Position numbers and translations under genes: made by a program. Positions 22,805 to 44,594 of a DNA stretch of 64,000 bases are shown piece after piece; the stretch's first letter is position 1, and each line of letters starts with the position of its first letter. The stretch comes from an uncultured Candidatus Saccharibacteria bacterium (GTDB lineage: Bacteria > Patescibacteriota > WWE3 > UBA101185 > UBA10185): the NCBI GenBank assembly GCA_964385105.1, contig CAYLMU010000002.1:53672-117671 (forward strand). Direction: 5' to 3'. Under the pieces are notes generated by a model. It made no database searches, was not told the DNA's origin, and was given only the letters and a program-made list of their open reading frames with translations.

Positions 22805-25294
22805 ATGATTTTATATGTAGTTTTGCCGGTAATTTTAATAGGTGGTATTTTAGGGGGTTTTTATAAGCTTAAGAAAAAAAGCGTCACTATAACATTAGAA
22901 GATCAGGAAATAGTGATTTTAGAAATACAAGTTCCTAAAATAGAAGAGGAAAGTTTAACAGACACACATATTTTTTCACTTTCTGCAGAACATTTATTTG
23001 CATCACTTCATGGATTACTTCAAGACAATACGGTAGAGCAGGAATGTTTCTCTTTTGAAATCAGCTCAGATTCAACCGGAATACGTTTTTTTATGACAGC
23101 ACCAAGAGGCATAATAAAATTTGTAGAAAGTCAGCTTTATGCCCAATATCCAAAAGCGCAACTAAAAATTATTGATGATTATGTAAAAACCGAACTATTG
23201 GAACATAGATTCTATGAAGTAGGTACTTTTTCGTTGAGAAAAGATTACTTTTTTCCTATAAAAGTATTTAGAAATTTTGAAATAGACCCATTGGCAAATG
23301 TTATGGCAAGTTTATCGGAAATTAATGAGAGTGAGTCAATTTGGATTCAATATGTAATAAAACCAATATCCGACGGTTGGCAGCAACCGGGACATGATTA
23401 TATTGACATGATTAAAACAGGAACTCAGCCGAGAAGTGAGTCGCTTTTTACCTGGTTTATTACAGGACTGATTAGAGAGCTAAGTTTAGTTATAACAGAA
23501 ATTCCTACAGCACTTTTTAGGCCAAGTGAGCCTACTGTTCGAGCTCCTGCAAAACCTGCCGGAAGTGAAGAAGTTAGGTTAACCACTTTTCAGGAACTTG
23601 AAATTTCATCAATTGAAGAAAAGCTGGCTAGACTAGGTTTTGAAGTGGTAATAAGAGTTGTATCAACAGCAGAAGATGAAGCCCGTGTAAAAAGCAATTT
23701 AAGGTCAATTAATGCCTCATTTAAGCAGTTTACAGGAACAAATTTAAACGAATTGGTTTTAAACATTTCAGACAGCAAGGAAGCAGCAATAGAAAAATAC
23801 AAAAAACGTTATTTAGATGTAGAAGAAGCTATAACCTTAAGCAATGAAGAAATCGCAACCGTGTTTCATTTACCTTCAACAAGAGCTAAAGCCCCAAATG
23901 TGTCATGGGTTTATTCAAAACAAGGTGAGCCGCCGTCAATGCTTCCAACCGAAGATGTGACTTATATCGGCGAAACCATATTTAGAGGGAAAAAAGTTCG
24001 ATTTGGATTACGCAACGGTGATGATCGATTAAGACATATGTACTTAATAGGTAAAACCGGAAGCGGTAAATCAACTTTACTTGAAACCATGATTTATCAG
24101 GATATATTAAATGGCCATGGTGTAGGCGTTCTTGATCCGCATGGCGAAACAATTGACCACATTTTAGAAAGAATACCTGATGAGCGTGTTGATGATGTTA
24201 TTTTATTTGATCCATCCGATACAGAAATGCCCATCGGATTAAACTTGCTTGAGATAGATGACCAGTCACAAAAAAATCTTATGACTTCAGCTTTGTTATC
24301 GGCAATTAAACAGCATTTTGATTTTTCATGGGGTCCCAGACTTGAATACTTGCTTAATTACGCACTCTTAACTCTAGTAGAAGTTCCGGGTACCTCAATG
24401 TTAGGTATAACCAGATTATTAGAAGACAGAAATTATCAAAACTACATTTTACATAAAGTACAAGATCCAATTATAAGACGCTTTTGGGAAGAAGAATTTA
24501 AAGAAATGCGCGGAAATCAAAAACTAGTAACAGAAGCAATTGCTCCGATTCAAAACAAAGTAAACAGATTTTTAGCTTCAACAACAATTAGAAATATTTT
24601 GGGGCAGAGAAATTCCACATTTAGTATCTGGGATGTCATGCAAGGCCGCAAGATTCTATTAATGAACTTATCAAAAGGTAAAATAGGGGAGGATAATGCA
24701 AATTTGTTGGGGGCGCTATTGGTTTCAAGAATACAATTTATGTCATTGCAAAGAGCAAGAATTGCGCCTGAAGAGCGTGTTCCTTTTTATTTATATGTAG
24801 ATGAATTTCAAAACTTTGCAACCGGAAGCTTTGAATCTGTGTTATCGGAGTCAAGAAAATATAAACTGGGGCTGTATCTAACTCACCAATACACCTCACA
24901 GCTTCCTGATGAGCTCTTAAAGGCCGTTTTTGGTAACGTGGGTACAATTGCGTCTTTTTCACTTGGCGCTCCTGATGCACGGGTTTTATCAAGTGAGTTT
25001 GCTCCATATTTTGATGAAGAAGACATAATATCTTTGGAAAGATTCCATATTTATATTAAACTTATGATAGACGGCATGACATCGCTTCCTTTTTCGGCTA
25101 AAATATTATTGCCGTGGAACGAAGAAACATCAGTCGCTCCAAAAACAGGCAATAAAGAACTGGTTATAGAAAGAAGCAGACAAAGATATGGTAGAGATAG
25201 GGCATATGTGGAAGAAGTGATTAAACGCTGGGTAGAAAGACCGTTTGATAAGGGAATGGCAATTGCCGAAGAGCACAAAGAAAAGCAAAATTAA
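22805..25294 (+). CDS. Membrane-anchored P-loop ATPase of the FtsK/HerA/VirB4-VirD4 (DUF87-like) superfamily
   Basis: N-terminal TM helix, a 400-aa N-domain, Walker A YLIGKTGSGKSTLLE...VLDPHGE, Walker B YLYVDEFQNF, and SRKYKLGLYLTHQYTSQL. Confidence 0.6.
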   Translation: MILYVVLPVILIGGILGGFYKLKKKSVTITLEDQEIVILEIQVPKIEEESLTDTHIFSLSAEHLFASLHGLLQDNTVEQECFSFEISSDSTGIRFFMTAPRGIIKFVESQLYAQYPKAQLKIIDDYVKTELLEHRFYEVGTFSLRKDYFFPIKVFRNFEIDPLANVMASLSEINESESIWIQYVIKPISDGWQQPGHDYIDMIKTGTQPRSESLFTWFITGLIRELSLVITEIPTALFRPSEPTVRAPAKPAGSEEVRLTTFQELEISSIEEKLARLGFEVVIRVVSTAEDEARVKSNLRSINASFKQFTGTNLNELVLNISDSKEAAIEKYKKRYLDVEEAITLSNEEIATVFHLPSTRAKAPNVSWVYSKQGEPPSMLPTEDVTYIGETIFRGKKVRFGLRNGDDRLRHMYLIGKTGSGKSTLLETMIYQDILNGHGVGVLDPHGETIDHILERIPDERVDDVILFDPSDTEMPIGLNLLEIDDQSQKNLMTSALLSAIKQHFDFSWGPRLEYLLNYALLTLVEVPGTSMLGITRLLEDRNYQNYILHKVQDPIIRRFWEEEFKEMRGNQKLVTEAIAPIQNKVNRFLASTTIRNILGQRNSTFSIWDVMQGRKILLMNLSKGKIGEDNANLLGALLVSRIQFMSLQRARIAPEERVPFYLYVDEFQNFATGSFESVLSESRKYKLGLYLTHQYTSQLPDELLKAVFGNVGTIASFSLGAPDARVLSSEFAPYFDEEDIISLERFHIYIKLMIDGMTSLPFSAKILLPWNEETSVAPKTGNKELVIERSRQRYGRDRAYVEEVIKRWVERPFDKGMAIAEEHKEKQN

Positions 25295-26813: not shown

Positions 26814-26892
26814 TTCAACTAGTAAAACTTTACCGAAATTTGAAACTTTGTCAATATGAAATTTTTATAATCCCCATGATACAATGTTGAAC

Positions 26893-27432
26893 ATGGCAGG
26901 ACATTCCAAGTGGCATAATATAAAAAGAAAAAAAGAAGCAACGGACGCAAAAAAAGGCCAGCAGTTTACAAAAGTCAGCCGATTAATTACTGTTGCAGCA
27001 AGAAATGGTGGGGGAGATCCTGATTCTAACCCTTCACTAAGGTTGGCTATTGAAAAGGCAAAATCCGTAAATATGCCAAAAGATAATATTGAGAGGGCAA
27101 TTCAAAAGGGGACAGGCGGCTCAGACGGGGCAGGTTATGATGAAATTGTTTATGAAGGTTATGGTCCTGAGGGTGTGGCATTTATGGTATTTGCGCTTAC
27201 AGACAACAGAAACAGAACCGTGGCTGAAATAAAAAATATATTTGATAAACACGGGGGAACACTTGGTAATCCGGGTAGTGCCTCTTATATATTTGATGCA
27301 AAAACAAAAGAGCCTCTATTTTCTGTGCCCGTGTCTGATAAGTCGGTCATTGACACTTTAGAAAGCTTAACTGAGTCACTTGAAGAAAATGAGGATGTAC
27401 AAGATGTTTACTTTAATTACACAGAAGCTTAA
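26893..27432 (+). CDS. yebC: YebC/PmpR-family (DUF28) probable transcriptional regulator, shorter than typical
   Basis: [14 protein letters not shown]...[12 protein letters not shown]...[10 protein letters not shown]. Confidence 0.75.
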
Positions 27433-28231
27433 CGCTTTAATTAACAACAAAAAATTACGATATTTACTTTTATCTATTGTTACTGTTTTAGCATTGTACG
27501 TAATGACTATGTCGGCAGAAACTCCAACCGATCTATTTTATTTAATTGGCTTTGTTTTGCTGTTTGCAGTAGGAAGCGTATTGGTTGCACAATTTACAAG
27601 TTTAATAAGCACTTCGTATGTTCTTTTTATGGTTTTACCTGTGCACCTTGTGATTGGGTTTATGACCTCATTTTACTTTTTCCCTAATTTAAGCGTACTA
27701 ATTAAGATGATTGCGTTTATATTAGCCGGAATAATAATTTATGTATTGTTTTTAATTAATAATGTTTTCTTGGTTGTAGAAGAAAAGGGGACACTTATAC
27801 CTTTATATAATGCAGCTATTTCATGGGTTCAGATGATTATTGTTATTATTGCGATTCCGTACTTTTCAGGGATATTTAAAGTACCGAGCAACTATATTTC
27901 TCAAAATGTTTTTGTTATGGTATCAAGTTTTATGTTTTATTTTTATATGATTTGGGCAGTAACTTTTGATCCGGATATAAAAAAGACTTCTGTTTCAGAG
28001 AGAACTATTTTAGCAACTTTATTGTCTTTTATTACTTTTTGTTGTGGAATGGCGGTTTCTTTTGTACCTACCGAATCATTTTTACGAGCGTTGTTTTTAG
28101 TATCTGTAGTGCTATTTTCATTGGCTTATATACAGGCTCATTATAAAAACCGATTAAATACCCGCATGATTATGGAATATGGATTTATATCATTAATATT
28201 TTTTTTAATTTTGCTTGCTTTTAATCCGTAG
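27380..28231 (+). CDS. Polytopic membrane protein (about 8 TM); start uncertain (27380 or 27404)
   Basis: Hydrophobic ORF; overlaps the yebC end. Confidence 0.5.
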
Positions 28232-28239
28232 ATTTTTAT

Positions 28240-29100
28240 TTACATTTAGGCTAGGGAAGAGCGGCGTATCAACAAATAGTCGCTACAGATGTAGAGAAGT
28301 GGAGCAGGAGAGTAGCAGCCTATAGTTTACAGTGCTAAAAGTGGTTAAACTATAGGGTACATTTGTCATACATATTGCGACGCGTTTGTCATAGTTTTTT
28401 AACAATTGCTTTGTTGATACGTGAGAATATGTTAGTACAACAATAAATAATGGCTGTCATATATTTGCATAACATAGGTTGTCATACTTTTTGATGGGGA
28501 GTATAGTTACTGCCTGTGGATAACCTGCGGTTATTATTCAAACATACCGAAGAAGCCTGGGTTCATCTTTGTTCGTGAATTAATTAAATATTAAATTAAA
28601 TAGAGTAATTAATACAAAAAATTGTTGTTAATTTATACAGACACCAAAGCCATTCCCTTTTTTAGTACAGAACTCTAACTTATTGATGTTATAAATCATA
28701 ACGTGTTTAGAAGTCGTTAAACATACATTATACGACGTCAAATATTTTGAGTTTTGTACTTCTCTTTCAAGAGCTTTGTATATAAAAATTAATCTTTTTA
28801 ATGCACACGATTTTTTGTTTTATTTTTTGATAATTTCATTTCTCCACACTTTCTACTTCTCTATTTTTTATTTCTCTTTTACCGCATTCATTTCTTTATA
28901 ATTCCCGCATTTCTTATATTATAAAATTGCATTATACCTCCTATCTTTTGCATATCCTTTTGTTACAGCTAAAAGCACATTCAAGGCCACAGAATGCCCT
29001 AGGAAGCATTTTATTTTATTTGATAACATCTAGTACCTCCAAAATAAATAAATCCACATACATTTTTGCTCGTTTATCATAAAGTGGTAAAATTATACTT
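28240..29100. promoter_or_regulatory. An 870-bp AT-rich gene-free region containing DnaA-box-like 9-mers, four TGTCATA elements, an 11-bp perfect inverted repeat and long AT tracts. I flag it as a candidate replication origin or large regulatory region
   Basis: Perfect TTATCCACA on the minus strand at 28515-28523; TTCTCCACA at 28840-28848; AAATCCACA at 29050-29058. A tract of more than 80% AT at 28580-28660. Inverted repeat cctatagttta/taaactatagg at 28319-28356. No ORF of 60 aa or more on either strand. Confidence 0.35.
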
Positions 29101-29105
29101 ATAGT

Positions 29106-30137
29106 ATGAACCTGTCCATCCAAACACATTTAATAAATTACCTTGAACATTGTGAAATAGAAAAAAATCTTTCTCAAAGCACTATTAAAATGTATCACTT
29201 TTATTTAAGTGATTTTATAGAATGGTTAAAAGAATACTTGGGTCGTGATGATGTTTCTGTTGACGATATAACTTATGAAATCATTAAAAAGTACCGTTTA
29301 AATTTAAATCGAAGAATAAGTTATAAATCAAATGAAGAGCTTAAGAAATCAACTCAAAAAACCTTTTTGGTGGCACTGAGAGCCTTTTTAAAGTATTTAG
29401 TGGTTGAGGAAGATGTAAATGCCATCTCACCGGATAAAATCATCCTAGGAAAGCCTGAGGCCCGCGTACCTAAAGTATTGGATGAAGAGCAGCTTGAGAG
29501 GCTTTTTGCCGTACAAAATTTAAATAAACGTTCTGGAATTCGTGACAGAGCAATTTTAGAAACTTTGTTTAGCACAGGATTACGAGTTTCGGAGCTTGTA
29601 GCACTTAATGTGGCTGATGTTAATTTAAATTCCGGTGAGTTCACTGTTGTTGGTAAAGGAAGAAAAGTTCGTACAGTGTATTTGAGCGATTCTGCACGCG
29701 AATGGATACGTCGTTATATTCAAACCCGACGCGACGAGTTTGCTCCACTTTTTTTAAGATATTCGGGTAAGAAAATGGAGGAGGAAGACGTAGATGGTGA
29801 ATCATTAAGATTGTCTGAAAGAAGTGTTCAACGTATGGTTAAAAAATACGTAACCAGAGCCGGAATCAGTATAGATGCTACTCCCCACACTTTAAGACAT
29901 TCTTTTGCAACAGGTTTGTTACGAGAGGGCGCAGATTTAAGAAGTGTGCAGGAACTTTTAGGTCACAGCAGTGTTTCAACAACTCAAATATATACGCATA
30001 TTACAAGCCATCAGTTACGAGAGACGCATAAAAAGTTTCATAAAGATTTGGATATTTCACAAAATGAAGTTACTAATGAGGTTTCTGTTGATGTTGATTT
30101 AGATTTTGAAAATGGCGAGATAGAGTCTTTATTTTAA
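29106..30137 (+). CDS. xerC: Tyrosine site-specific recombinase, XerC/XerD family
   Basis: N-terminal core-binding domain; RDRAILETLFSTGLRVSEL; catalytic RHSFAT...LGHSS...Y tetrad. Confidence 0.85.
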   Translation: MNLSIQTHLINYLEHCEIEKNLSQSTIKMYHFYLSDFIEWLKEYLGRDDVSVDDITYEIIKKYRLNLNRRISYKSNEELKKSTQKTFLVALRAFLKYLVVEEDVNAISPDKIILGKPEARVPKVLDEEQLERLFAVQNLNKRSGIRDRAILETLFSTGLRVSELVALNVADVNLNSGEFTVVGKGRKVRTVYLSDSAREWIRRYIQTRRDEFAPLFLRYSGKKMEEEDVDGESLRLSERSVQRMVKKYVTRAGISIDATPHTLRHSFATGLLREGADLRSVQELLGHSSVSTTQIYTHITSHQLRETHKKFHKDLDISQNEVTNEVSVDVDLDFENGEIESLF

Positions 30138-30675: not shown

Positions 30676-31797
30676 TCAATTTATAACAACAATATCGTGA
30701 GCTCCGCTTTCTACTTTCCCTTGCGACGTAATTTGCACAAATTCGGCATTGCTCCAAAGTTCATTTAAATTTCTAGCTCCTGAATAACTGAATCCAGATT
30801 TCACACCTGCAAGCAAAAGCTCAACCAATTCTTCTACAGAACCTTTATATGGCACATACCCGGATACCCCTTCAATGTGCTTGTTATAAGACTCCGACTT
30901 ATTTTGAGGTTCCGATTGAATGTGGTAATTTTTTTCTTCTACCGATGTTGATCCGTTGTATTTTTTGTACTTTTTGCCTTCAATCTCAATAATTTCACCG
31001 GGAGTTTCATCCGTGCCTGCAAGCATACTACCCACAGCAACAGCCGATGCACCTGCAGCCAAGGATTTAACTATATCCCCTGAATTTTTTAGTCCGGCAC
31101 AAGGTATAAAAGTTTTATTATACTTTCTTGCAACCGCGCTAATTCTAAGTAACGAATCAAATGTCGGGAGACCACTCCCGGTTTGGATTCTTGTTGTGCA
31201 TATTGAGCCACCGCCTACTCCAACAAAAACACTGTCTGCACCGGCATTAAATAAATCGTTTGCACATTCGCCTGTTGCACAAATTCCTGAAATTAAAGTG
31301 ATATTATCCATAAATTTGTTTTTTATCTCTCTGGTAAAGTTTATATTTTGTTCCATGTGGCCGTGTGCAACGTCTATGTTTAATACTTTTGCTCCGGCGT
31401 TTACAAGCAGTTCTGCTCTTTCCATGCTTCCCGGTTTAATACCTATGCTTGCGGCAGCTATTGCTCCTTTTGAAGCAATTTGTGCGACTTTCTCTGCTTG
31501 CTGTTCTGCGGCTTCAAAACGTGGAAGTATGCCCATTCCACCCAGTTCACTCATTTTTATAGCCATAGCAAGACCTGTTACTGAATTCATATTTGTGCTT
31601 ATTATTGGCATTTTAAGCGTTAAATTAGATGATATTTTAGTTTCCAAGTTCACTTCTGATCTTGAATTTATTGTGGAATATTTTGGTACCAGAAGTACAT
31701 CGTCAAATGAAAGCGCTAGTTTAAAGGTATTTGGGCTTGGGTTGTGTTGTGACGCAAACACGAGTTTAAGAATACCCCCTAAGTGATATTTAATCAA
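30676..31797 (-). CDS. IMP dehydrogenase/GMP reductase family protein (TIM barrel, no CBS pair)
   Basis: LSFDDVLLVP...PIISTNMNSVTG...GICATGE...GVGGGSICTTR catalytic Cys loop. Confidence 0.75.
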   Translation of the reverse strand: MIKYHLGGILKLVFASQHNPSPNTFKLALSFDDVLLVPKYSTINSRSEVNLETKISSNLTLKMPIISTNMNSVTGLAMAIKMSELGGMGILPRFEAAEQQAEKVAQIASKGAIAAASIGIKPGSMERAELLVNAGAKVLNIDVAHGHMEQNINFTREIKNKFMDNITLISGICATGECANDLFNAGADSVFVGVGGGSICTTRIQTGSGLPTFDSLLRISAVARKYNKTFIPCAGLKNSGDIVKSLAAGASAVAVGSMLAGTDETPGEIIEIEGKKYKKYNGSTSVEEKNYHIQSEPQNKSESYNKHIEGVSGYVPYKGSVEELVELLLAGVKSGFSYSGARNLNELWSNAEFVQITSQGKVESGAHDIVVIN

Positions 31798-32464
31798 TAC
31801 CTTTAATCTTAAAGCTTGTTCTGTGAGCTGAGCACCTGCCGTATTTTTGAATCATTTGCTTATGAAGCTTTGTGCCGTATCCTTTATGCCTGTTAAATCC
31901 ATATTGAGGAAATTCTTGATGCGTTTTTTGCATTAAATTGTCACGATACACTTTTGCCAAAATTGACGCGGCAGCAACCGATAAACTTAAAGAATCACCT
32001 TTTGTAAGATTGAGTTGTTTGTTATGGTAATCTGCCATGTTGAGCTTAAAGTAATCTGTTATTACATATTGCGGAGATATACCCATTTCATTTATTGCTT
32101 TTGCAAATCCGGATGAATTAGCCATTCCTACCCCACTTTTATCTATTTCATCTGTATCTATAACAACAATAGAATAGCAAAGTGCGTTTAATGTGATAAA
32201 TTCAAATAATTTCTTTCTAGCATTGGGACGCATTTTTTTTGAATCATTTATGTGTGTATATTCAGCTAAAATTTCAGACGAGACGTCGTTATTTCTGGAT
32301 ATGCTTGATTCGCTATATAGTCTGTTATACAAATGATTTTTGTCTAAAATCACTGAAGCTACAACTAAAGGCCCAGCCAATGGTCCTCTACCTGCCTCGT
32401 CTACGCCGGCAATATAATCAATTCCTGATGACCATATTTTATTTTCGTATTCAAGCAAACGCAT
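31790..32464 (-). CDS. rnhB: Ribonuclease HII
   Basis: IAGVDEAGRGPLAGPLVVASV and DSKK motifs. Confidence 0.85.
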   Translation of the reverse strand: MRLLEYENKIWSSGIDYIAGVDEAGRGPLAGPLVVASVILDKNHLYNRLYSESSISRNNDVSSEILAEYTHINDSKKMRPNARKKLFEFITLNALCYSIVVIDTDEIDKSGVGMANSSGFAKAINEMGISPQYVITDYFKLNMADYHNKQLNLTKGDSLSLSVAAASILAKVYRDNLMQKTHQEFPQYGFNRHKGYGTKLHKQMIQKYGRCSAHRTSFKIKGID

Positions 32465-32487
32465 TAATTAATATTATATTGAATAGT

Positions 32488-35085
32488 TTAGCTTTCGCTT
32501 TCAGCCGCTTCTTCCTCTAGTACGGCTACTGATGACACATAATCACTGCTATCAAGCCTCATTAATCTAACACCCATCGTTGACCTACCCAACTGCGGAA
32601 TTTCTTTTTTTTGTAATCGAATAAATTTACCGGTACCTGTTGCAACCAAAATATCCCCTTCTACATTTTCATGTAATAATTTGGCGGTTACAATGTCACC
32701 TGTTTTTGCAGTTACTTTATAGGTTAATATTCCTGAACCTCCCCGATTTTGTACTTTATATTCCTCAAGATCGGTTTTTTTACCGTATCCTGATTCGGAA
32801 ACTACAAGAAGATTAATGTTTTTACTCGTTTCAGGAATTATTTCCATAGCTACAACCTTATCGTCTGATTTTAATGAAATTCCCCGAACTCCGGCTGCAC
32901 TTCTACCCATTGGTCTTGCATGGGATTCTTTAAATCTTATAGACTGTCCTTTGGCGGTTATTAAAATTACATCGTTATTACCGTCTGTATATCCAGCACC
33001 AATCAGGTTGTCTCCGCTATTTATACCAATTGCAATTATTCCGCTTGTTCGAATATTTCTAAAGTCTTCTACAGGAGTTTTTTTGATAATGCCATGTTCT
33101 GTACTAAAAACAACAAATCCTCGGTTCTCGTCCAATATTTCAGGTGTTAATACCAAAAAGGCTTGTACTTTTTCATCTTGGCTCAAGCTTAAAAAGTTTA
33201 CTACAGCTGTACCTTTTGAGGTTCTGCTTGTTTCAGGTATTTCCCAAATTCTCATCTTGTACGCTCTGCCTTTGTTTGTAAAAAACAGAGCAAAATCATG
33301 AGTATTGCAAAGTTTAATTGTATCTACACCGTCTTCTTCTTTTAATTCCTGGCCTTTCACACCTTTTCCTCCCCTACCCTGTCTTTTATATGTTCCCTCT
33401 TTAAGTCTTTTAATGTAGCCACTCTCTGAAAATGTAATAATGCACTTTTCATTTACAATTAAGTCACTTTCTTCAAGTTGTCCGACCTTTGTTTTTACAA
33501 CTTTTGTTCTTCTTTCATCACCGTATTTGTCTTTTAACTCCAATAATTCATTTTTTACTTCATTTATGATTTTTTTAGGTGAAATTAGTAAATCCTCATA
33601 GCCGGCAATAGTTTTCACAATTTGCTCAAGTTCGTCTTCAATCTTTTTTCTTTCAAGTGCAGCCAGTTTTCTAAGTTGCATGTCTAAAATTGCCTGTGCT
33701 TGTATTTCGCTAAGGTCAAAATTTTTCATAAGGCCTGTTTTTGCAGTTTCTGCATCAGCGCTGTTTCGAATAAGTTTTATAACTTCATCCAAGTGATCTA
33801 AAGCAATTTTGAGACCTAAGAGTATATGTTCACGGTCTTTAGCCTTTTTGAGGAAGTAAATTGTTCTTTTTACCACAATCTGTTGCCGGTGCTTAACAAA
33901 CTCTTCCAAAACTACTGTTAATGTCATTAATTTCGGTTCGCCGTCCAGTAAAGCCACCATGTTTGTGTTAAAGGTGTTTTGTAATTGGGTATGTTTATAA
34001 AGCTGGTTTTGAACTTTTTTGACAATTGCATCTCTTTTGAGCTCGATTACTATTCTCATGCCTTGTCTATTTGATTCGTCTCTTAAATCTGATATTCCAT
34101 CAATTTTTTTATCTTTTACGGAGTCGGCAATTTTGGATATAAGTGTGGATTTGTTGACCTGGTATGGTATTTCAGTAACAATAATTCGCGTTTTTCCACC
34201 TTTTACTTCCTCTGTTTCCATTTTTGCTCGTGTGATTACTCTTCCCTTACCTGTTGCATACATTTGCATAATTTCTTTTTGGTCATAAATAATTCCTCCT
34301 GTAGGAAAATCAGGCCCTTTTATATGTTCAATTAAGTCTTCAACCGTTGCATTTGAAGAAAAACCTATTTCAGCAATTTTAACTTTATAACCCGGGATAA
34401 TTTCTTGTGCCGTTTCATCACTGCCATCAACACCAATTTCATCCGCCATATCAATCATTAAAGCTAACCCGTCTACGACTTCATTCAAATTATGAGGCGG
34501 AATGTTTGTAGCCATACCAACCGCAATTCCAGAAGCGCCGTTTAATAGCATGTTTGGCAATAAAGAAGGCAAATAAAGAGGTTCTTCATTTTGAAGGTCG
34601 TTTAACACAAAATCTACTGTTTCGTTGCCGATATCCTTAAATAATTCTTCTGAAATTTTATTTAGCTTTGCTTCTGTGTACCTCATTGCAGCAGGAGGGT
34701 CGCCGTCTATGCTTCCAAAATTACCTTGTGGGGCAATTAAGGGGTATCTTAAAGAAAAGTTTTGAGCCATTCGTACCATGGCGTCATAAACGGATGTATC
34801 ACCGTGAGGGTGATATTTTTTAAGAACTTCACCAACAACTGCTGCTGATTTATGGAATTTACCCGAAAATGTCATTCCCTGATCTTGCATAGCATAAATA
34901 ATTCTTCGCTGAACGGGTTTTAGCCCATCCCTAACATCAGGAAGCGCTCGGGATACAATTACGCTCATAGCATAATCCAGATACGCTTTTTGCATTTCAT
35001 CAACAATATTGGATTGTATTATATTTGGATTATCTGTTTCTTCGGGCTCGGCCAATGAAGTGATTTTGTCGGTAGTATCTGCCAT
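32488..35085 (-). CDS. gyrA: DNA gyrase subunit A (contains the GyrA box QGRGGKG)
   Basis: [27 protein letters not shown]; active-site Tyr region; GyrA box [13 protein letters not shown]; beta-pinwheel C-terminal domain. Confidence 0.9.
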
Positions 35086-35168
35086 AGCCCATTAATAATA
35101 GCAGTTTTACCGGCATGTTTCAATGCAATGTTTCGCTTAATATTGCGAAATTGTCATAAAATAGCACA

Positions 35169-35198
35169 TTGACGTTACAATTATGATTGGTGTAATAT
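35169..35198 (+). promoter_or_regulatory. Candidate sigma70-type promoter placed so as to give a leaderless mRNA for the 35206 gene
   Basis: TTGACG (35169-35174), an 18-nt spacer, TAATAT (35193-35198), then the ATG 7 nt later at 35206; no SD. Confidence 0.35.
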
Positions 35199-35205
35199 AT
35201 AACCC

Positions 35206-35505
35206 ATGGACAGAGAAACTATAAACTTATTTCTTGAAAAATTTAATCAAATTGATAAAAGATTTGACCAGCTCGATGAGAGATTTAATCAGATAGACGA
35301 AAGGTTTAACCAAATGGATGAGCGTTTTAACCAAATGGAAAGAAGATTTAACAATATTGACGAAAGATTGGAAAGAATGGAATTTAAGATTGACGACACA
35401 CGCTATATTGTTGAAGGACTTGTATCATTTAACTATGTTACAGAACCAAAATTAGATGACCGTCTAAAACGATTTGCTGAGGAAAACGATTTAAAATACG
35501 TATAA
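35206..35505 (+). CDS. Small protein with tandem 7-aa repeats (ERFNQxD, at least 5 copies)
   Basis: MDRETINLFLEKFNQIDKRFDQLDERFNQIDERFNQMDERFNQMERRFNNIDERLERME...; the 21-nt repeats are visible in the DNA. Confidence 0.5.
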   Translation: MDRETINLFLEKFNQIDKRFDQLDERFNQIDERFNQMDERFNQMERRFNNIDERLERMEFKIDDTRYIVEGLVSFNYVTEPKLDDRLKRFAEENDLKYV

Positions 35506-35527
35506 ATTGCACTGTTTGGACATTAAA

Positions 35528-36466
35528 TTATTGTAATGCCTTTTCGATTGCGGGGGCTATATCTTTTTTGCGGCTCATTTTTGGCCCGATATCTGCCAAA
35601 TTTTCATTAGCTTCTGTGTTAAAGGCTTTTTCCACTATTTTCTCTTCAAGGTCACTTGGATATATCATTTGTGAATTTACTTTAAGAATGTCTGTAACAG
35701 CCAAAAAAGCATATTCTGTTTCAAATTTGGCTTTTAAAGAATTTAAAGCTTGTACAAGTGAGTCTTTTTGTTCAACAATAACTTGCGGCTCAACCGTTTC
35801 TACTTGATTAATAAATACCTTGTGTCCGTTAAATTCAAAAATTTTGTAGTCTTTTGTTGAAATTTCTTCCGGACCTAAACCTGTTATATCTGATTTAGCT
35901 TTAAAGAGTTCAAAAATAAATGTATCAAGTTCAATGTTGAGGTTTTCAGATATTTCATTGGCATACTCTGCGTCATAGCCTGTGGTCGTGCTGGATTTTA
36001 AGCCTTGAGTGTCAGATAGTATGGCTGCCAATGTTATTCCCATTACCCCTTTTGATGGTATAAGGCCTTGGGTTTTAAAGTGTTCATATACTAAGGTACT
36101 TGTTGAACCCAATGGTTTAACATCCACGCGCAATGGAGTAATAAAACTCAAATTTACTCTATGGTGATCCAAGATTTCTAAAATATTCTCACTATTAACA
36201 CTTGGATGTCTTTGAAAGTCTTCGTGGTGATCAGTGAGAATGAACCAGTCATCAGAATTGACTTCAAATTCTTCAATATGTTTGGGCAATGCTACTTCAA
36301 AAGTGTCAAAAACAAACACAGTTTCAGGGTTAGGCTCTCCTGCTCTAACCGGAATTAACTCACTGCCTTCATATCTTTTGTATTTTCTCAAAAATTCGGC
36401 ATAAGCAATTGGAGAAGCTATAGCATCTAAATCCGGTGATGTATGACCGATTATGAATATTCGCAT
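35528..36466 (-). CDS. ppaC: DHH-family manganese-dependent inorganic pyrophosphatase (family II PPase)
   Basis: IIGHTSPDLDAIASPIAYA...DHHE motifs; about 310 aa. Confidence 0.65.
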   Translation of the reverse strand: MRIFIIGHTSPDLDAIASPIAYAEFLRKYKRYEGSELIPVRAGEPNPETVFVFDTFEVALPKHIEEFEVNSDDWFILTDHHEDFQRHPSVNSENILEILDHHRVNLSFITPLRVDVKPLGSTSTLVYEHFKTQGLIPSKGVMGITLAAILSDTQGLKSSTTTGYDAEYANEISENLNIELDTFIFELFKAKSDITGLGPEEISTKDYKIFEFNGHKVFINQVETVEPQVIVEQKDSLVQALNSLKAKFETEYAFLAVTDILKVNSQMIYPSDLEEKIVEKAFNTEANENLADIGPKMSRKKDIAPAIEKALQ

Positions 36467-36985
36467 AGATTATAAGTTTAGCATGTGAGATTTAAAGAAA
36501 AAAGGTAAAAAAAGGCGCAACGGTCATGTCCAGAAATAATTCGACTGTATTACAACTGAGCTTTTGCTCTAGTCACAATCGAAAAAGCCTGTAGGGCTCT
36601 GTTTTTCTAGTCATTACGCAGCGCCAAATCGGAAACGTGGGTGTCAAGTTTGAAAGATGTATATATCAAACAAAAAAAATACCTGACACCCACGTGTTGT
36701 TTTTGCGGGAAGAGGACGTTTGGAAGCTTATTGTCGTCGTGGTGCTTCCGGGAATTTGTGGTTGTCCTCTTCCCTTACCTGCAGATGATGCTTCTAGAAT
36801 TTCTCGCTGATAGTTTGCGAGTGCAATCATCCGCACACAATCGCGATATAGCTTATTGCCGTTTTTGGTCACCCCGGCCTGTTTAAGCAAGGGTCGGCAA
36901 GGCTCCATCGCGAGTAATGTTGGAAAGTATACAAAACTATGGGATACTTGTCAAGTAGTAATCTTAGATATAAGAGCAACATACT

Positions 36986-38974
36986 TTAAGTCATATCAAC
37001 TTCGGCGTCTTTGGCGTGGGTTTGTATAAATCGTTTTCGAGGGGCAACTTCTGAGCCCATTAAGGTGCTAAACACTTCTTCTGAGCGTGACATGTCTTCA
37101 ATTGTGATTTTTTTCAAACGGCGGGTTTCAGGATTCATTGTGGTTTCCCATAATTCCTCGTCATTCATTTCACCCAAACCTTTAAATCTTTGTATAACTG
37201 CCTTTTGCCCGTCTGATGTTTTTAAAAATGCTTTTAGCTCTTTATCATCAAACAAGTATTTTTTGTTTTTACCCCAAGTTGCTTTAAAAAGCGGAGGTGC
37301 AGCTAAATATATGTATCCGTCTTCAATAAGTTCTTTCATGTGACGGTAAAAAAACGTTAAATGTAGAGTTGCAATGTGATTTCCGTCAGAGTCGGCATCT
37401 GCCATGATAATAATTTTGTGGTATCTTAAATTGTCTGCGTCGTAGTGTTCGCCTATTCCTGTACCAAGGGCAAGTATAAGGTTTTTAAATTTTTCCGAAT
37501 CAACTATTTTATCAAGTCTTGCCCGTTCGGTGTTAAGTACTTTACCAAATAACGGTAAAATAGCTTGAGTTTCTCGGTCTCTACCCTGTTTTGCCGAACC
37601 TCCTGCAGAATCCCCTTCTACTATAAAGATTTCTGCTTTTTTAGGATCTTTTTCTGAACAGTCAGCCAATTTTCCGGGTAATACTCCCCCGCCATCCATT
37701 GCGCTTTTTCTAATAACTGTGTCACGTGCCGCCTTTGCAGCCATTCTTGCTTTTAATGCCAATACGTTCTTTTCTATTATGTTTTGTGCCACTTTAGGAT
37801 TTTCTTCAAAAAATGTAGCTAATGAGTCACGCGTAATATTCTCGACTGCTGTTCTAACTATTGAATTACCTAGTTTTCCTTTTGTTTGGCCTTCAAACTG
37901 TAGTTTGTCGGCATCAAGTTTTACTGAAATAACAGCAGTTAAACCTTCTTTTAAATCATCACCGGATAAATTGGGCATATTGTCTTTAATTAAATTATTG
38001 TTTCGGGCATAATCGTTAACAACTTTTGTTAAGGCGGTTCTGAAACCTGTTAAGTGTGTTCCACCTTCATTTGTTTTGATGTGGTTTGCAAAAGTTAATA
38101 TATTTTCTGCAAATGAGTCATTGTACTGAAAAGCTATTTCTACGTTTACATTGTCGTGTTCTTTGTTTATATAAAAAATCTGGTCGTGAACAGGTTTTTT
38201 GTTTCGATTTAATGATTTGATGTAAGATTTTATTCCACCATCAAAATAGAAAAAATAAGTTTCATTAGCGCGATTATCTACAATCTCAAATTTTATGTTT
38301 GCCGTCAAATAGGCATATTCTCTAAGCTGTGCTATAAAAAAGTTTAATTTAAAATCGGTTGTTTCAAAAATTGTACCGTCTGGCTTAAAGTGAATAATAG
38401 AACCTGATTCAGCATTCCAGGAATCAAAATTTAAATTAAGCTTTGCATTTTTTATTTTAGTTTTTAAATCACCGGGTTTGAACTTTTCAACAGGGCGAAG
38501 TACTTTTCCTCCGTTTTCATATTCTTGAATGACCCACTCATCCCCTCTTTTAACAATTACTCTTAGCCAGTCAGACAGTGCGTTCACAACAGATGCTCCA
38601 ACACCATGTAAACCGCTTGATACCTTATAACCAGAATCATCACCGCCAAATTTTCCTCCGGCATGAAGCTTTGTAAATGCAAGTTCAAGTGCTGATACGT
38701 TGTAACCTTGTTTTAATTCATATGGAATACCTCGGCCGTTGTCATAAACTGCAACAGAACCGTCGTCAAAAAATTCAACCTTAATGGTGTTTGCATAACC
38801 GGCAATGGCCTCATCCATTGAGTTATTAACAATTTCCGTAACCAAATGATGAAGTCCGGCCTGGCTGGTTGAGCCAATATACATTCCGGGGCGTTTTCTA
38901 ACGGGTTCAAGACCTTCTAAAACCTGTATCTGATCTGCGCCGTAATTACTCTTTTTGTTAGTGTCTTTTGCCAT
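36986..38974 (-). CDS. gyrB: DNA gyrase subunit B
   Basis: GLHHLVTEIVNNSMDEA ATPase lid; EGDSAGGSAKQGRDR Toprim; C-terminal tail. Confidence 0.9.
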   Translation of the reverse strand: MAKDTNKKSNYGADQIQVLEGLEPVRKRPGMYIGSTSQAGLHHLVTEIVNNSMDEAIAGYANTIKVEFFDDGSVAVYDNGRGIPYELKQGYNVSALELAFTKLHAGGKFGGDDSGYKVSSGLHGVGASVVNALSDWLRVIVKRGDEWVIQEYENGGKVLRPVEKFKPGDLKTKIKNAKLNLNFDSWNAESGSIIHFKPDGTIFETTDFKLNFFIAQLREYAYLTANIKFEIVDNRANETYFFYFDGGIKSYIKSLNRNKKPVHDQIFYINKEHDNVNVEIAFQYNDSFAENILTFANHIKTNEGGTHLTGFRTALTKVVNDYARNNNLIKDNMPNLSGDDLKEGLTAVISVKLDADKLQFEGQTKGKLGNSIVRTAVENITRDSLATFFEENPKVAQNIIEKNVLALKARMAAKAARDTVIRKSAMDGGGVLPGKLADCSEKDPKKAEIFIVEGDSAGGSAKQGRDRETQAILPLFGKVLNTERARLDKIVDSEKFKNLILALGTGIGEHYDADNLRYHKIIIMADADSDGNHIATLHLTFFYRHMKELIEDGYIYLAAPPLFKATWGKNKKYLFDDKELKAFLKTSDGQKAVIQRFKGLGEMNDEELWETTMNPETRRLKKITIEDMSRSEEVFSTLMGSEVAPRKRFIQTHAKDAEVDMT

Positions 38975-39144
38975 GCTTTGTTATTGTAGCGAAATTGGTT
39001 ATGTGTTTCAACCGTAGAATTAATACTTGATTCGGGTTTTATTCGCTACCTTTAGTATAGCATTTGGTGAGGTAATTTCAATGGGTAAAAAACAGATACA
39101 CAATAAATCTGATTGTCACAGACCTTCGGCTTTTTTTACTCTTC

Positions 39145-39825
39145 TCACTTAATGAGCGTCATCAAATACTCTAAACCAAGTTTTAAATTAACATTTGTAT
39201 TTTCAAAATCATTCTTAATTTCTAAAATTGCATCAATATTTTCGGTGGCTCCGGATATTTCAGCAAGTAATTCCCTTTCTTGAATAATCCAGCTTTCTAA
39301 CATGTTAATAACTTCGTCTTTTTCTTCTTTTGATGCGTCTGCGGCCCATGCAAGTCGTTCGCCTAGTGTCATTTTTTTAATTTCGTCTATAGCAATTGGT
39401 GTGTTTTCACCTGGTTGTTGGCTGATTTCTTTAAATTTTACCTCAACTCGTTGGCACCTTGATATAACTGTTGGCAATAAAGACTTTAAATTTTTTGCCT
39501 CCAAAATTATGGTGGCGTATGTGGGAGGCTCTTCTAATATTTTTAAGAGTGCGTTTTGTGCCTCGGGTGTTAAAAGATGTGCTTCTTTAATAATTACATA
39601 CTTATAGCGTGAAGAAAAAGGCTTTTGAGTAATGTATTTAATCAAACCCCTAGTTTGGTCTATTCCTATTGAGTTTTTGTCTTCCAAACGTTCAATAAAC
39701 AACACATCCGGGTTGTCATGTATCTTAGTTTCGGTTTGTAAAATTATATCTTCGATTTTTTTAACCCGGTCTTCGCGTAATCCGCCATAAACCAAAATTG
39801 AACCCTTCATAAATTCATTATACAT
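39145..39825 (-). CDS. holB: DNA polymerase III clamp-loader subunit (delta-prime-like); start uncertain (track 39903)
   Basis: SRC motif PTVISRCQRVEV in an AAA+ fold; degenerate P-loop. Confidence 0.5.
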   Translation of the reverse strand: MYNEFMKGSILVYGGLREDRVKKIEDIILQTETKIHDNPDVLFIERLEDKNSIGIDQTRGLIKYITQKPFSSRYKYVIIKEAHLLTPEAQNALLKILEEPPTYATIILEAKNLKSLLPTVISRCQRVEVKFKEISQQPGENTPIAIDEIKKMTLGERLAWAADASKEEKDEVINMLESWIIQERELLAEISGATENIDAILEIKNDFENTNVNLKLGLEYLMTLIK

Positions 39826-39878
39826 TGCATATGTAGCGTGAAGATTGATACAATAAATCTGCATAGCTATTGCTGCCC

Positions 39879-41657: not shown

Positions 41658-41682
41658 TATTTAAGTTTTAGGAGCCCTGCCC

Positions 41683-42762
41683 ATGGCTTTAAACACATCA
41701 CAAATATTAGAAAAAATTATTGAGCTGAGTGCATCAGACTTGCATTTAACTGTTGGAATGCCTCCTGTTATTAGAGTTAACACAAAATTAATGGTTCTTA
41801 AAGACCATAGTGTGTTAACTATTGATGAAATCTCACAATTTTTAACAAAAGTTTTAACACCTGAACAAAAAAATGTATTTGAAGTAAACAAAGAAGTGGA
41901 CTTTTCAGTAGCTCTTGGTAATAAAGCAAGGTTTAGGGTAAATGCTTTTTATCAAAAGGGTTACCCTTCGGTAGCGTTAAGAACAATACCAATGGTAGTT
42001 CCCTCTTTAGAAAGTTTACATTTACCTCCGGTACTTACAAAACTCACGCTTTTAAAGCAAGGGCTTGTTTTAGTTGTTGGACCCACCGGGCATGGTAAAT
42101 CTACCACAATTGCGTCAATGATTGACCACATTAATGAAACACGCTCTGAACATATTCTTACAATTGAAGACCCTATTGAATATATTTTTACAAATAAAAG
42201 ATCACTGGTTGAGCAAAGAGAAATGTATCTTGATACCCATTCATGGGATGCGGCTTTACGTTCTATTTTAAGGCAAGATCCAAATGTTGTATTTATTGGC
42301 GAGATGCGTGACACCGAAACAATTCAGTCAACATTAACAATTGCAGAAACGGGCCATTTGGTATTTGCAACACTTCATACAAATTCAGCGTCTCAAAGTG
42401 TAGACAGAATTATTAGTTCGTTTCCCGAAATTAAGCAACTTCAAATAAAAATGCAGCTTTCACAAGCTTTGGAAGCAGTTGTATCTCAGCGATTAATCGA
42501 ATCCCCCAACAAAGGAATGATTCCTGCAATTGAATTATTGTTAGCCAGCGACGCGGTTAAAAGTACAATAAGAGAAGGTAAAACACATCAGCTTGAAAAT
42601 ATTATAAGTACAAGCTCAAACATTGGAATGATAAATATGGAATCAAGTTTGGCACTTTTGGTTCAAAAAGGCGATATAACCATGGATAATGCATTAAAGT
42701 TTGCAATGAATCCTGAGTTATTGCGTCGCCTGTTAAAAAGTTATAGTTCAACAGAAAAATAA
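41683..42762 (+). CDS. pilT: Twitching-motility (retraction) ATPase PilT
   Basis: GPTGHGKSTT, GEMRD and AIRNLIRE-like motifs; 359 aa; AGGAG SD. Confidence 0.9.
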   Translation: MALNTSQILEKIIELSASDLHLTVGMPPVIRVNTKLMVLKDHSVLTIDEISQFLTKVLTPEQKNVFEVNKEVDFSVALGNKARFRVNAFYQKGYPSVALRTIPMVVPSLESLHLPPVLTKLTLLKQGLVLVVGPTGHGKSTTIASMIDHINETRSEHILTIEDPIEYIFTNKRSLVEQREMYLDTHSWDAALRSILRQDPNVVFIGEMRDTETIQSTLTIAETGHLVFATLHTNSASQSVDRIISSFPEIKQLQIKMQLSQALEAVVSQRLIESPNKGMIPAIELLLASDAVKSTIREGKTHQLENIISTSSNIGMINMESSLALLVQKGDITMDNALKFAMNPELLRRLLKSYSSTEK

Positions 42763-42768
42763 AACAAT

Positions 42769-43971: not shown

Positions 43972-44001
43972 CAAAATTACTGAAAGGGGGTGACAGAGAA
44001 A

Positions 44002-44511: not shown

Positions 44512-44546
44512 AGCGTTATTATAAAGCTTAGCTTTGTATTAAAGCA

Positions 44547-44586
44547 AAAAGACCTGCTTATTTAATAAGCAGGTCTTTTGTTATAC
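44547..44586 (+). terminator. Rho-independent terminator after pilA
   Basis: aaaagacctgcttatttaataagcaggtcttttgtt. Confidence 0.6.
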
Positions 44587-44594
44587 TTTAAAGT

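Follow-up and report, generated by a model that had tools for sequence, protein, structure and literature searches.

A probable Xer recombination locus with a dif-type site, a single recombinase, and a KOPS-like polar motif in WWE3-type Patescibacteria

Comparative sequence analysis suggests that the largest ORF-poor gap in the studied 64-kb stretch of DNA (hereafter, the window) is probably the Xer recombination locus of the chromosome, in which a dif-type site, a single-recombinase module, and the polarity of a KOPS-like motif are combined. The architecture of this region is common to 17 related WWE3-type Patescibacteria genomes and 120 metagenome stretches, and is kept, with changed sequence, in Woesebacteria-type genomes (hereafter, Woese-type); the possibility of poor conservation among relatives, raised in a preliminary description of this DNA, was not borne out.

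In the region (positions 28232-29105, 874 bp), ORFs do not exceed 51 aa, and the AT content is 69.6%, compared with 63.7% over the 64-kb window; the gene-free AT-rich stretch of about 870 bp that had been described earlier is therefore real. It indeed exceeds every other ORF-poor gap in the window, but the claim that it does so by far was overstated, as other gaps are 775, 527, and 519 bp long, the first of them shrinking to about 566 bp should a 70-aa ORF within it be genuine. The mean intergenic distance in a closed WWE3 genome is 66 bp (PMC3812714). Counterparts of the region in the relatives vary between 620 and 1440 bp in length, with the order of elements kept. The region is flanked by yebC, (ruvC), a membrane-protein gene, and xer, and in the relatives a yebC-ruvC operon is located immediately upstream. 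Small proteins were considered and dismissed, since the only ORFs are of 51 aa or less and no conserved coding signal was found beyond short blocks. The features of the region and the adjacent recombinase gene are as follows.

28232-29105, no strand: ORF-free intergenic region, flanked by a DUF5656-like membrane-protein gene and xer
28251-28259, plus strand: copy of the polar motif, CTAGGGAAG
28291-28302, plus strand: member of the polar motif family, GTAGAGAAGTGG, found where the module begins on the left and directed toward the core
28319-28329 and 28346-28356, no strand: 11-bp perfect inverted repeat, CCTATAGTTTA/TAAACTATAGG
28356-28375, 28379-28398, 28447-28466, and 28472-28491, plus strand: four direct iteron-like units, consensus GTARGnTTGTCATAnTTTT
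28496-28501, plus strand: copy of the polar motif, GGGGAG
28515-28523, minus strand: perfect DnaA box (TTATCCACA on the minus strand, TGTGGATAA on the plus strand), one repeat period past the last unit
28562-28640, no strand: AT-rich tract, 84-90% AT in 50-nt windows, between the DnaA box and the core
28710-28739, plus strand: dif-like core, a 30-bp imperfect palindrome of 12-6-12 layout, GAAGTCGTTAAA-CATACA-TTATACGACGTC
28710-28721, plus strand: left arm of the core, GAAGTCGTTAAA
28722-28727, plus strand: 6-bp spacer of the core, CATACA
28728-28739, plus strand: right arm of the core, TTATACGACGTC
28753-28765, minus strand: inverted copy of the polar motif, AGAGAAGTACAAA, pointing back to the core
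28850-28863, minus strand: inverted copy of the polar motif, TAGAGAAGTAGAAA, pointing back to the core
28989-29012, plus strand: conserved block ACAGAATGCCCTAGGAagcatttt (consensus YCTAGAATGCCCYAGGATCGATTTTT), 43-190 nt 5' of the xer start codon
29106-30137, plus strand: XerC/D-class tyrosine recombinase, 343 aa (Pfam PF00589, 7.8e-46)

The most conserved element of the region is the dif-like core, which was absent from the list of elements given earlier. Its arms are identical as inverted repeats at 9 of 12 positions, and in two relatives they are perfectly palindromic; the core thus has the layout of a dif site, two inverted arms of about 11 bp around a center of 6-8 bp. It lies 370 bp 5' of the XerC/D-class recombinase gene. 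A single copy was found in the 64-kb window, in the locus of each relative, and in each metagenome stretch (n = 120). The core is present in all 17 relatives, always in the same orientation relative to xer; it is identical in 10 of them and carries between one and five changes in the other 7. In closed or near-closed related genomes, the core is positioned at about 779,695 of 901,682 (CP055307.1), 236,353 of 982,852 (OY970314.1), 1,026,553 of 1,112,869 (JBMORU010000001.1), and 690,408 of 925,229 (JBPOHV010000001.1). Changes among lineages are restricted to the inner right arm. In Woese-type loci, a related site, GTCGCACAA-TGTAAC-TTTTGCGAC, is located 5' of xer, and comparison of the two lineages shows that both arms differ in concert (GTCGCACAA/GTCGCAAAA in Woese-type and GTCGTTAAA/GTCGTATAA in WWE3-type loci). 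Linkage of the core with the xer gene is preserved in both WWE3-type and Woesebacteria-type Patescibacteria, and the core is the probable target site of the adjacent recombinase. A dif site, which the preliminary description had mentioned as an alternative in view of the recombinase, is well supported, though it is placed at 28710-28739.

The recombinase neighbor, earlier labeled xerC/D, does belong to the XerC/D class of tyrosine recombinases, and no other tyrosine recombinase is encoded in the window. Its catalytic motifs are legible in the sequence (GLRVSE, GKGRK, HTLRHS, LLGHSS, and IYTH), so that the 343-aa protein has the intact motifs expected of a cognate Xer-family recombinase of a dif site. 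The NCBIfam models for XerC and XerD score the protein equally well (249.9 and 253.7 bits, respectively, both under the equivalog cut-offs), and the nearest PDB sequences are XerD and XerA. The conserved block upstream of the gene, in which a -10-like TAGAAT is accompanied by a GC-rich discriminator, would represent the xer promoter plus leader.

Convergence of a polar oligomer on the core is the other characteristic feature of the locus. The heptamer AGGGGAG was the top skewed 7-mer in an unbiased k-mer scan of WWE3-type loci, where 66 copies point toward the core and none away from it; the unbiased scan of an independent Woese-type set gave 62 copies toward and 1 away. In 120 metagenome loci, 176 plus-strand and 4 minus-strand copies are located to the left of the core, and 8 plus-strand and 90 minus-strand copies to the right (266 toward, 12 away). 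AGGGGA/GGGGAG in the window shows the same pattern, with 14 plus-strand and 1 minus-strand copies on the left and 1 and 12, respectively, on the right (26:2; Fisher p = 8e-6). The best polarity change point in the window falls between 28496 and 29886, and the polarity is near-total across at least 24 kb to the left and at least 33 kb to the right of the core. The motif family can be written as GTAGRGRAGTG, and most relatives have an equivalent inverted copy 45-57 bp to the right of the core. Gene orientation fails to explain the polarity, because in genes coding away from the core the motif occurs five times on the template strand and never on the coding strand, whereas approximately 19 coding-strand copies would be expected if it merely tracked coding strands. 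These template-strand copies, together with the positions of copies within genes, contradict an origin of the signal as a Shine-Dalgarno or coding-strand artefact. The core is hence located where polar oligomers of the KOPS/AIMS type converge, as is characteristic of dif. A nearby gene encodes an 829-aa ATPase that is VirD4/HerA-like; an FtsK with a gamma domain was not identified, which was counted against the dif reading.

To the left of the core, the region contains a module of direct repeats, a DnaA box, and an AT-rich tract. The four TGTCATA elements reported earlier in one orientation are all present on the plus strand (28364, 28387, 28455, and 28480), although the position 28489 given for one of them is off by about 9 nt. 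Repeat units (51 in 18 intergenic regions) have one orientation throughout, number between 2 and 5 per locus, follow each other with a period of 23-25 bp, and are located 200-450 bp to the left of the core. A PWM scan of the loci of the relatives found no units beyond this intergenic region, and this confinement led us to reject TGTCATA as a general promoter element. Analogous units, TATAGG..GTTTTCACGA, are present in Woese-type loci. The word TTGTCATA occurs 10 times in the window (3.3 expected), 3 of these copies being within 28232-29105. The 11-bp perfect inverted repeat reported at 28319-28356 is also present; its CTATAG(G) word corresponds to the 5' half of each repeat unit and occurs one to three times in the relatives.

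The perfect minus-strand DnaA box claimed at 28515-28523 was found as described (TTATCCACA), and its position is conserved: it is kept in 16 of 18 WWE3-type regions and 96 of 108 metagenome loci. The box TGTGGATAA is invariant over exactly 9 bp and lies 172-262 bp to the left of the core (155-185 bp in Woese-type loci), most commonly 25 bp past the last TGTCATA. Two near-match boxes had also been listed, and both exist (TTCTCCACA at 28840 with 1 mismatch and AAATCCACA at 29050 with 2 mismatches), but neither is conserved in the relatives. The AT-rich tract begins 40 bp from the DnaA box; its AT content of 84-90% agrees with the tracts of more than 80% AT noted earlier, and its AATTAAT-type words recur in the relatives. 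Two further arrangements were considered and rejected. A DnaA-trio/BUS arrangement has no conserved pattern in the relatives (the window has CCTGCGG followed by TTATTATT), and a symmetric fork trap, whose inverted units would stand on the right-hand side of the core, would require inverted TGTCATA, which is found in just 8 of 74 loci. The left module is a conserved set of protein-binding sites and not an RNA. Its retention in genomes that rank among the most compact known from bacteria makes it very likely that the module does something, and it is most likely a putative accessory nucleoprotein array involving DnaA that would control the site or the passage of the fork. The origin-like anatomy of this module would be superfluous for a plain dif site and was counted against the assignment.

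The locus shares features with several known systems. Like XerS/difSL of streptococci and lactococci and XerH/difH of Helicobacter and Campylobacter, it has one Xer-family recombinase and a near-palindromic site beside its gene. The location of dif beside the recombinase gene has been described as a hallmark of such single-recombinase Xer systems, in which recombination needs a translocase of the FtsK type that follows polar motifs (PMC5357621). Nonetheless, the recombinase studied here has the score of a generic XerC/D (~250 bits), which greatly exceeds its XerS score (136 bits), and its match to XerH is weak; the spacer is 6 bp long, in contrast to 11 bp in difSL; and, unlike in both systems, the core does not immediately adjoin the gene but lies 240-900 bp from it and is accompanied by the conserved repeat and DnaA-box module. 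With E. coli XerCD/dif-KOPS and B. subtilis SRS, the locus shares the 11-6-11-type geometry and a G-rich polar oligomer that converges from both arms. The KOPS sequence of E. coli is GGGNAGGG, whereas the motif found here is AGGGGAG; apparently one recombinase operates here, not two as in E. coli XerCD. The core is identical to E. coli dif at 15 of 28 positions and to B. subtilis dif at 16 of 28.

The core also resembles loxP of phage P1, to which it is identical at 22 of 30 positions, including a 14-nt run TCGTATAATGTATG that spans an arm and the spacer. As in Cre/loxP, one recombinase would act on a palindromic site with resolution of dimers, as is proposed here. Unlike loxP, with its 13-bp arms and 8-bp spacer, the core has the 12-6-12 layout, is chromosomal, and is syntenic across lineages; Cre is a distant member of the family of the recombinase described here. 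Finally, as in the plasmid sites cer and psi, an Xer core is flanked on one side by a few hundred base pairs of DNA that would bind accessory proteins, and this putative accessory DNA could likewise impose selectivity of resolution. The accessory proteins of cer and psi are PepA, ArgR, and ArcA, and their binding sites abut the core; the array described here, by contrast, is located 200-450 bp from the core and is made up of direct repeats, with a DnaA box at its end.

In the proposed reaction, two Xer monomers would bind the two arms of the core and exchange strands across the 6-bp spacer, and this exchange would convert chromosome dimers to monomers. A DNA translocase may use the polar motif in the way that FtsK uses KOPS and so be steered to the core.

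The headline of the preliminary description, an origin of replication, has to be weighed against this assignment. A classical bidirectional oriC, in which DnaA would bind the boxes and unwind the AT-rich tract and two forks would depart in opposite directions, would account for the perfect, position-conserved DnaA box beside that tract and the repeats, and dnaB, gyrA, gyrB, and holB are all within the window. However, most other features argue against it, and we regard it as highly improbable. An AT-rich unwinding element does stand beside the DnaA box, but the usual cluster of boxes is missing, as the region contains one perfect box plus another with a single mismatch. A scan of the window for DnaA boxes showed no enrichment (19 with at most one mismatch, 22 +/- 4.6 expected), with further perfect boxes at 2996 and 30410. 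Linkage to dnaA/dnaN, which is common for oriC though not obligatory, was not found either: no dnaA signature was detected in the window, as had been stated earlier, or in any of 201 related loci (1.8 Mb). Genes, skew, and polar motifs, which should diverge from a skew minimum at an origin, all converge on the locus. Within 15 kb, the plus strand carries approximately 90% of the coding DNA on the left, and the minus strand carries 83% on the right, and raw GC skew has a local peak at the locus in place of a minimum. At fourfold-degenerate sites, plus-strand GC skew in the window ranges from +0.12 to +0.19 on the left and from +0.01 to +0.11 on the right, and in 105 metagenome loci from +0.06 to +0.13 on the left, with about 0 on the right. 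The plus strand of the left flank is thus G-rich at synonymous sites in every data set, which means that this flank is replicated toward the core.

The convergence of genes and raw GC skew was counted in favor of the dif reading. In model bacteria, GC skew flips at dif. The fourfold-site skew falls by approximately 0.08-0.1 at the core but changes sign neither there nor anywhere across the 64 kb; in this the locus differs from those of E. coli and B. subtilis, and the unchanged sign was counted against the dif reading. Because the synonymous-site skew falls without a change of sign, a unidirectional origin of the iteron type beside dif is a conceivable, though unlikely, reading. In such an arrangement, a rightward fork would round the ~1-Mb chromosome and end beside the origin, and the region would serve as both ori and ter. 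Origins of the iteron type have at least three direct repeats, each 17-24 bp long. The left module, with its two to five repeats at a period of 23-25 bp (about two helical turns), DnaA box, and tract of 84-90% AT, shows as a whole the anatomy of an iteron origin, and a non-classical origin function is therefore conceivable. Similar direct repeats, flanked by a DnaA box and accompanied by an AT-rich tract, are found at ori2/dif2 of Pseudoalteromonas chromids, and these chromids, 0.64-1.39 Mb in size and unidirectionally replicated, provide a precedent with dif 4-27 kb from ori and non-flipping skew (PMC7858055). CPR origins have also been reported with short repeat arrays and DnaA-box-like sequences (PMC4736985; PMC7111523). 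Against a unidirectional origin, 83% of the coding DNA in the 15 kb to the right, including gyrA and gyrB, would be head-on to the rightward fork; there is a single good DnaA box; and the right-hand skew in the larger metagenome set is not clearly positive. Unlike at iteron plasmid and chromid origins, where the cognate Rep gene is usually adjacent, neither a Rep-like initiator nor dnaA is encoded nearby, and genes converge on the locus; a 243-aa neighbor considered as a Rep-like initiator had coiled-coil matches only. Moreover, correctly assembled bacterial genomes are expected to have a peaked cumulative GC skew, a sign of bidirectional replication (PMC7111523). The broader proposal, that the sole chromosome of Microgenomatia-type Patescibacteria (WWE3, Woesebacteria, and relatives) is replicated unidirectionally, like a giant iteron plasmid, from an origin of direct repeats and one DnaA box approximately 200 bp from dif, where the fork would also end, appears doubtful to a similar degree. 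To our knowledge, unidirectional replication has so far been shown for secondary replicons only, namely the Pseudoalteromonas chromids.

Two readings without replication or dimer resolution at the locus were also weighed. The palindrome could be a recombination site with some other role, e.g., an attachment site or a site of an Xer-like recombinase that acts elsewhere; the tyrosine-recombinase geometry of the core and its resemblance to loxP are compatible with this, and local sequence alone leaves the placement of the terminus unproven. We nevertheless find it very unlikely, since synteny is fixed in two deep lineages, mobile-element genes are absent from the site, each stretch has one core and no second copy that would permit inversion or excision, and a chromosome-scale switch of polarity at the core is unexpected for an attachment site. 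A phage attachment site, in particular, was rejected because none of the viral contigs searched carries the core. Least credible of all is the view that the conserved blocks are parts of a structured non-coding RNA or of an extended regulatory leader preceding xer. In its favor, the region folds somewhat better than shuffled sequences (z = -2.3 on the plus and -3.3 on the minus strand for 28236-28560), contains nested perfect inverted repeats, and has a promoter-like TTGTCA-17-TATAGT at 28479-28507. However, Rfam matched nothing in the region at gathering or permissive thresholds, in the window and in 11 related loci, and ARAGORN found no tmRNA or tRNA in the region. For the Woese-type alignment, RNAalifold gave a negligible consensus fold (-7.8 kcal/mol over 518 columns), essentially without covariation, and the fold analyses gave no support for an RNA-hairpin role of the inverted repeat at 28319-28356. 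It is short, sequence-specific blocks that are conserved, whereas the spacers between them are unconserved and variable in length, and a 12-nt outer inverted repeat is found in the window alone and not in the relatives.

In the literature searched, we found no account of dif sites or KOPS-like polar motifs in Patescibacteria; the locus gives a candidate dif site and a candidate steering motif, AGGGGAG, for this group. For the accompanying repeat and DnaA-box module, the candidate roles are control of Xer recombination, fork arrest, or initiation, and "major regulatory hub", a term applied to the region earlier, is a fair loose description. If the module were an origin, unidirectionally replicating main chromosomes would be new, and if that reading were true, origin and terminus would form one compact, deeply conserved locus. 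The core and the motif together provide a sequence-only landmark of chromosome architecture that applies to two or more deep lineages, as well as a check on the assembly and orientation of genomes that are known almost wholly from metagenomes.

The recombinase gene xer is preceded by an 874-bp region whose longest ORF is at most 51 aa and whose AT content is 69.6%, versus 63.7% for the window. The preliminary description had called this gap the largest by far; no ORF-poor gap in the window is larger, but others reach 500-775 bp. The features of the region are as follows.

28232-29105: ORF-free region, 874 bp, between a polytopic membrane-protein gene (27380-28231) and xer (29106-30137)
28319-28356: 11-bp inverted repeat
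28364, 28387, 28455 and 28480: four TGTCATA elements, same strand
28515-28523, minus strand: perfect DnaA box
28562-28640: AT-rich tract, 84-90% AT
28710-28739: core site, GAAGTCGTTAAA-CATACA-TTATACGACGTC, two 12-bp arms and a 6-bp spacer
28840 and 29050: near-match DnaA boxes TTCTCCACA and AAATCCACA, right of the core
28989-29012: conserved block, consensus YCTAGAATGCCCYAGGATCGATTTTT, 43-190 nt before the xer start codon; putative xer promoter and leader

The minus-strand DnaA box, both near-matches, the inverted repeat and the four TGTCATA elements had all been listed previously and are present, the last TGTCATA coordinate having been about 9 nt off.

Relatives were retrieved with the recombinase protein, yielding 80 loci from species-representative genomes, of which 17, labelled WWE3 or Patescibacteria, show 60-76% identity in this protein. 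All 17 share the gene order TPR gene (minus strand), yebC, usually ruvC, membrane-protein gene, gap, and xer, followed by mostly minus-strand genes. The ORF-free gap upstream of xer spans 620-1440 bp in these relatives, and the mean intergenic spacing of a closed WWE3 genome is only 66 bp (PMC3812714). Since a large gap recurs in the same gene order in every relative, it is a retained feature.

In the window, YebC (26884-27432) is shortened to 182 aa, matching only positions 1-137 of the 245-position model, and ruvC, which comes after yebC in the majority of relatives (e.g., at L001 3589-4068), is absent, so that the membrane-protein gene overlaps the yebC remnant. Two relatives (L010 and L012) have the same arrangement, which points to a subclade deletion and rules out an assembly error. 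The minus-strand genes at 30676-39903 (an IMPDH-family gene, RNase HII, gyrA, a DHH-family gene, gyrB, and holB) are all directed at the core. A type IV pilus set (PilB-like and PilT-like ATPases, a PilC-like platform protein, and a prepilin peptidase) occupies 39870-45476 and is followed by the second-largest ORF-poor gap (45477-46251; 775 bp, or ~566 bp if a 70-aa minus-strand ORF at 45473-45685 is real).

The element singled out by BLAST and k-mer conservation across the relatives, GTCGTTAAACATACATTATACGAC at 28713-28736, was absent from the preliminary description. It belongs to the core site, whose arms show an inverted-repeat identity of 9/12 and whose 12-6-12 layout is the geometry of a tyrosine-recombinase core site. 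The core occurs once in the 64-kb window and once in each of 120 metagenome stretches, and none of the viral contigs searched contained it. In all 17 relatives it lies 240-900 bp upstream of xer in constant orientation and varies only in the inner right arm; the arms are perfectly palindromic in two relatives, which would be expected of a site bound on both arms by a single protein. A related site, GTCGCACAA-TGTAAC-TTTTGCGAC, with both arms altered in parallel, was found upstream of xer in the same synteny in approximately 20 Woesebacteria-/Microgenomates-type (Woese-type) loci, whose Xer proteins are 41-50% identical. The core is identical to loxP at 22/30 positions, including a 14-nt run, and matches the dif sites of E. 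coli and B. subtilis at 15/28 and 16/28 positions, respectively.

In Woese-type loci, e.g., L049 4395-4815 (alignment A1), conserved blocks flank the core in direct orientation (CGAAGAAAAACCGAAC left, CCGAACAAATACCGAA right). An NT5C-like (5'-nucleotidase family) gene of 250-260 aa lies between the dif-like core and xer in these loci (L047 4102-4887, L049 5169-5918, and others), and none is found there in WWE3-type genomes. Downstream of xer, two Woese-type relatives have SAM riboswitches (RF00162) at a distance of a few kb (L047 9015-9134 and L051 7964-8058), and gyrA lies after xer in many relatives of both lineages.

The encoded protein is of the XerC/D class, scoring near-equally on the XerD and XerC models and below the equivalog cut-offs of both; among solved structures, XerD and XerA are closest to it in sequence. 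It is the sole tyrosine recombinase encoded in the window. A site adjoining the recombinase gene has been described as characteristic of Xer systems with one recombinase, XerS/difSL and XerH/difH (PMC5357621). Between the core and the block read as the xer promoter and leader lies a 14-codon minus-strand ORF (MQFYNIRNAGIIKK, 28888-28932); a perfect AGGAGG (28937-28942) precedes its ATG by 4 nt.

Purine-rich words of the GTAGAGAAGTGG type lie on either side of the core, inverted relative to each other. This prompted an unbiased k-mer scan, outside the intergenic region itself, for words that switch strand between the two sides of the core. The top 7-mers in the window and the 17 relatives form one family (toward:away counts of 66:0 for AGGGGAG, 58:0 for TAGGGGA, and 38:0 for GTAGGGG), and AGGGGAG was again the top word in the independent Woese-type set (62:1). 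The 120 metagenome loci contain 176 plus and 4 minus copies on the left, and 8 plus and 90 minus copies on the right. In the window, AGGGGA/GGGGAG sites number 14 plus and 1 minus left of the core versus 1 plus and 12 minus right of it (Fisher p = 8e-6), spread between window coordinates 5 kb (left) and 62 kb (right), with the best polarity change point between 28496 and 29886. Together with the core site, this switch supports the previously suggested alternative of a dif site next to the recombinase gene. Several sites right of the core are on the template strand of plus-strand genes. Genes coding away from the core carry the motif five times on the template strand and never on the coding strand, where ~19 copies would be expected if it tracked coding strands; a coding-strand effect is thus ruled out. 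KOPS-type motifs at dif are defined by just such near-absolute polarity converging on a recombination site, and we infer that the motif is read by a DNA translocase. An 829-aa ATPase of the VirD4/HerA/FtsK superfamily (22805-25294; DUF87, TrwB, DUF8128; one N-terminal hydrophobic helix) keeps its synteny with the yebC-xer locus among relatives. The search for an FtsK gamma domain gave no hit, including in this ATPase, which therefore cannot be named the reader.

The TGTCATA elements belong to direct repeat units with the consensus GTARGnTTGTCATAnTTTT (51 copies, all on one and the same strand, across 18 intergenic regions), which have a period of 23-25 bp and lie 200-450 bp left of the core; a PWM scan of the loci found none outside the intergenic region. 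The perfect DnaA box TGTGGATAA is constant in position in 16/18 WWE3-type regions and 96/108 metagenome loci, 172-262 bp left of the core and most commonly 25 bp (one repeat period) after the last unit. Exactly 9 bp are invariant and conservation stops there; this predicted box is not a chance match. In Woese-type loci, the identical 9-mer follows analogous units (TATAGG..GTTTTCACGA), 155-185 bp to the left of the core. Its identity across two lineages in which arms and repeat units differ points to a binder of fixed specificity, which would fit DnaA. The near-matches at 28840 and 29050 are not conserved in relatives. Repeats and DnaA box form a genuine and conserved module, probably an accessory of the site, and the literature search found no known dif locus with a comparable one.

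The CCTATAG inverted repeat is built from the 5' half of the repeat unit. A 12-nt perfect inverted repeat (CGTATCAACAAA at 28265-28276 and TTTGTTGATACG at 28410-28421) encloses the first two units and this palindrome and dominates the predicted fold of the region; none was seen in the aligned relatives. In Woese-type loci (alignment A1), the DnaA box is preceded, at ~45 nt, by GTATAGTTTGATATAGTT, which resembles an extended -10 element (TGnTATAGT). None of the conserved elements behaves as RNA.

A classical bidirectional oriC, the reading initially proposed, is not supported. There is no DnaA-box cluster, the box scan gave 19 DnaA-box-like 9-mers in the window versus 22 expected (no enrichment), and dnaA is absent from the window and from 201 loci. 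Gene strands, raw GC skew, and the polar motif all converge on the locus: over 15 kb, coding DNA is ~90% plus strand on the left and 83% minus strand on the right, and all 17 relatives have positive raw skew to the left, 15 of the 17 negative raw skew to the right. At fourfold-degenerate sites, the plus-strand component of GC skew, taken after separating the coding-strand effect, is +0.12 to +0.19 left of the core and +0.01 to +0.11 right of it (+0.06 to +0.13 and ~0, respectively, in 105 distinct metagenome loci), a noisy estimate resting on few gene families near the site. The drop at the core (~0.08-0.1) is reproducible and leaves the sign unchanged; in the window, plus- and minus-strand gene blocks each keep their value across the site. 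This differs from the textbook terminus pattern.

The non-flipping skew keeps alive a unidirectional, chromid-like origin adjoining dif. Unidirectionally replicating Pseudoalteromonas chromids are reported to show this signature, in which such skew accompanies iteron-like repeats, a DnaA box, and an AT-rich tract next to dif (PMC7858055), and short repeat arrays with DnaA-box-like sequences have been reported for CPR bacterial origins (PMC4736985; PMC7111523). However, the fork would run head-on into the 15 kb to the right of the site, gyrA and gyrB among them, and no initiator gene lies nearby; we regard such an origin as unlikely.

No description of dif or KOPS in Patescibacteria was found in the literature searched. 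The locus is probably the Xer/dif locus of the chromosome, a module that combines a single recombinase with a KOPS-like polar motif and is conserved across at least two deep lineages of Patescibacteria.
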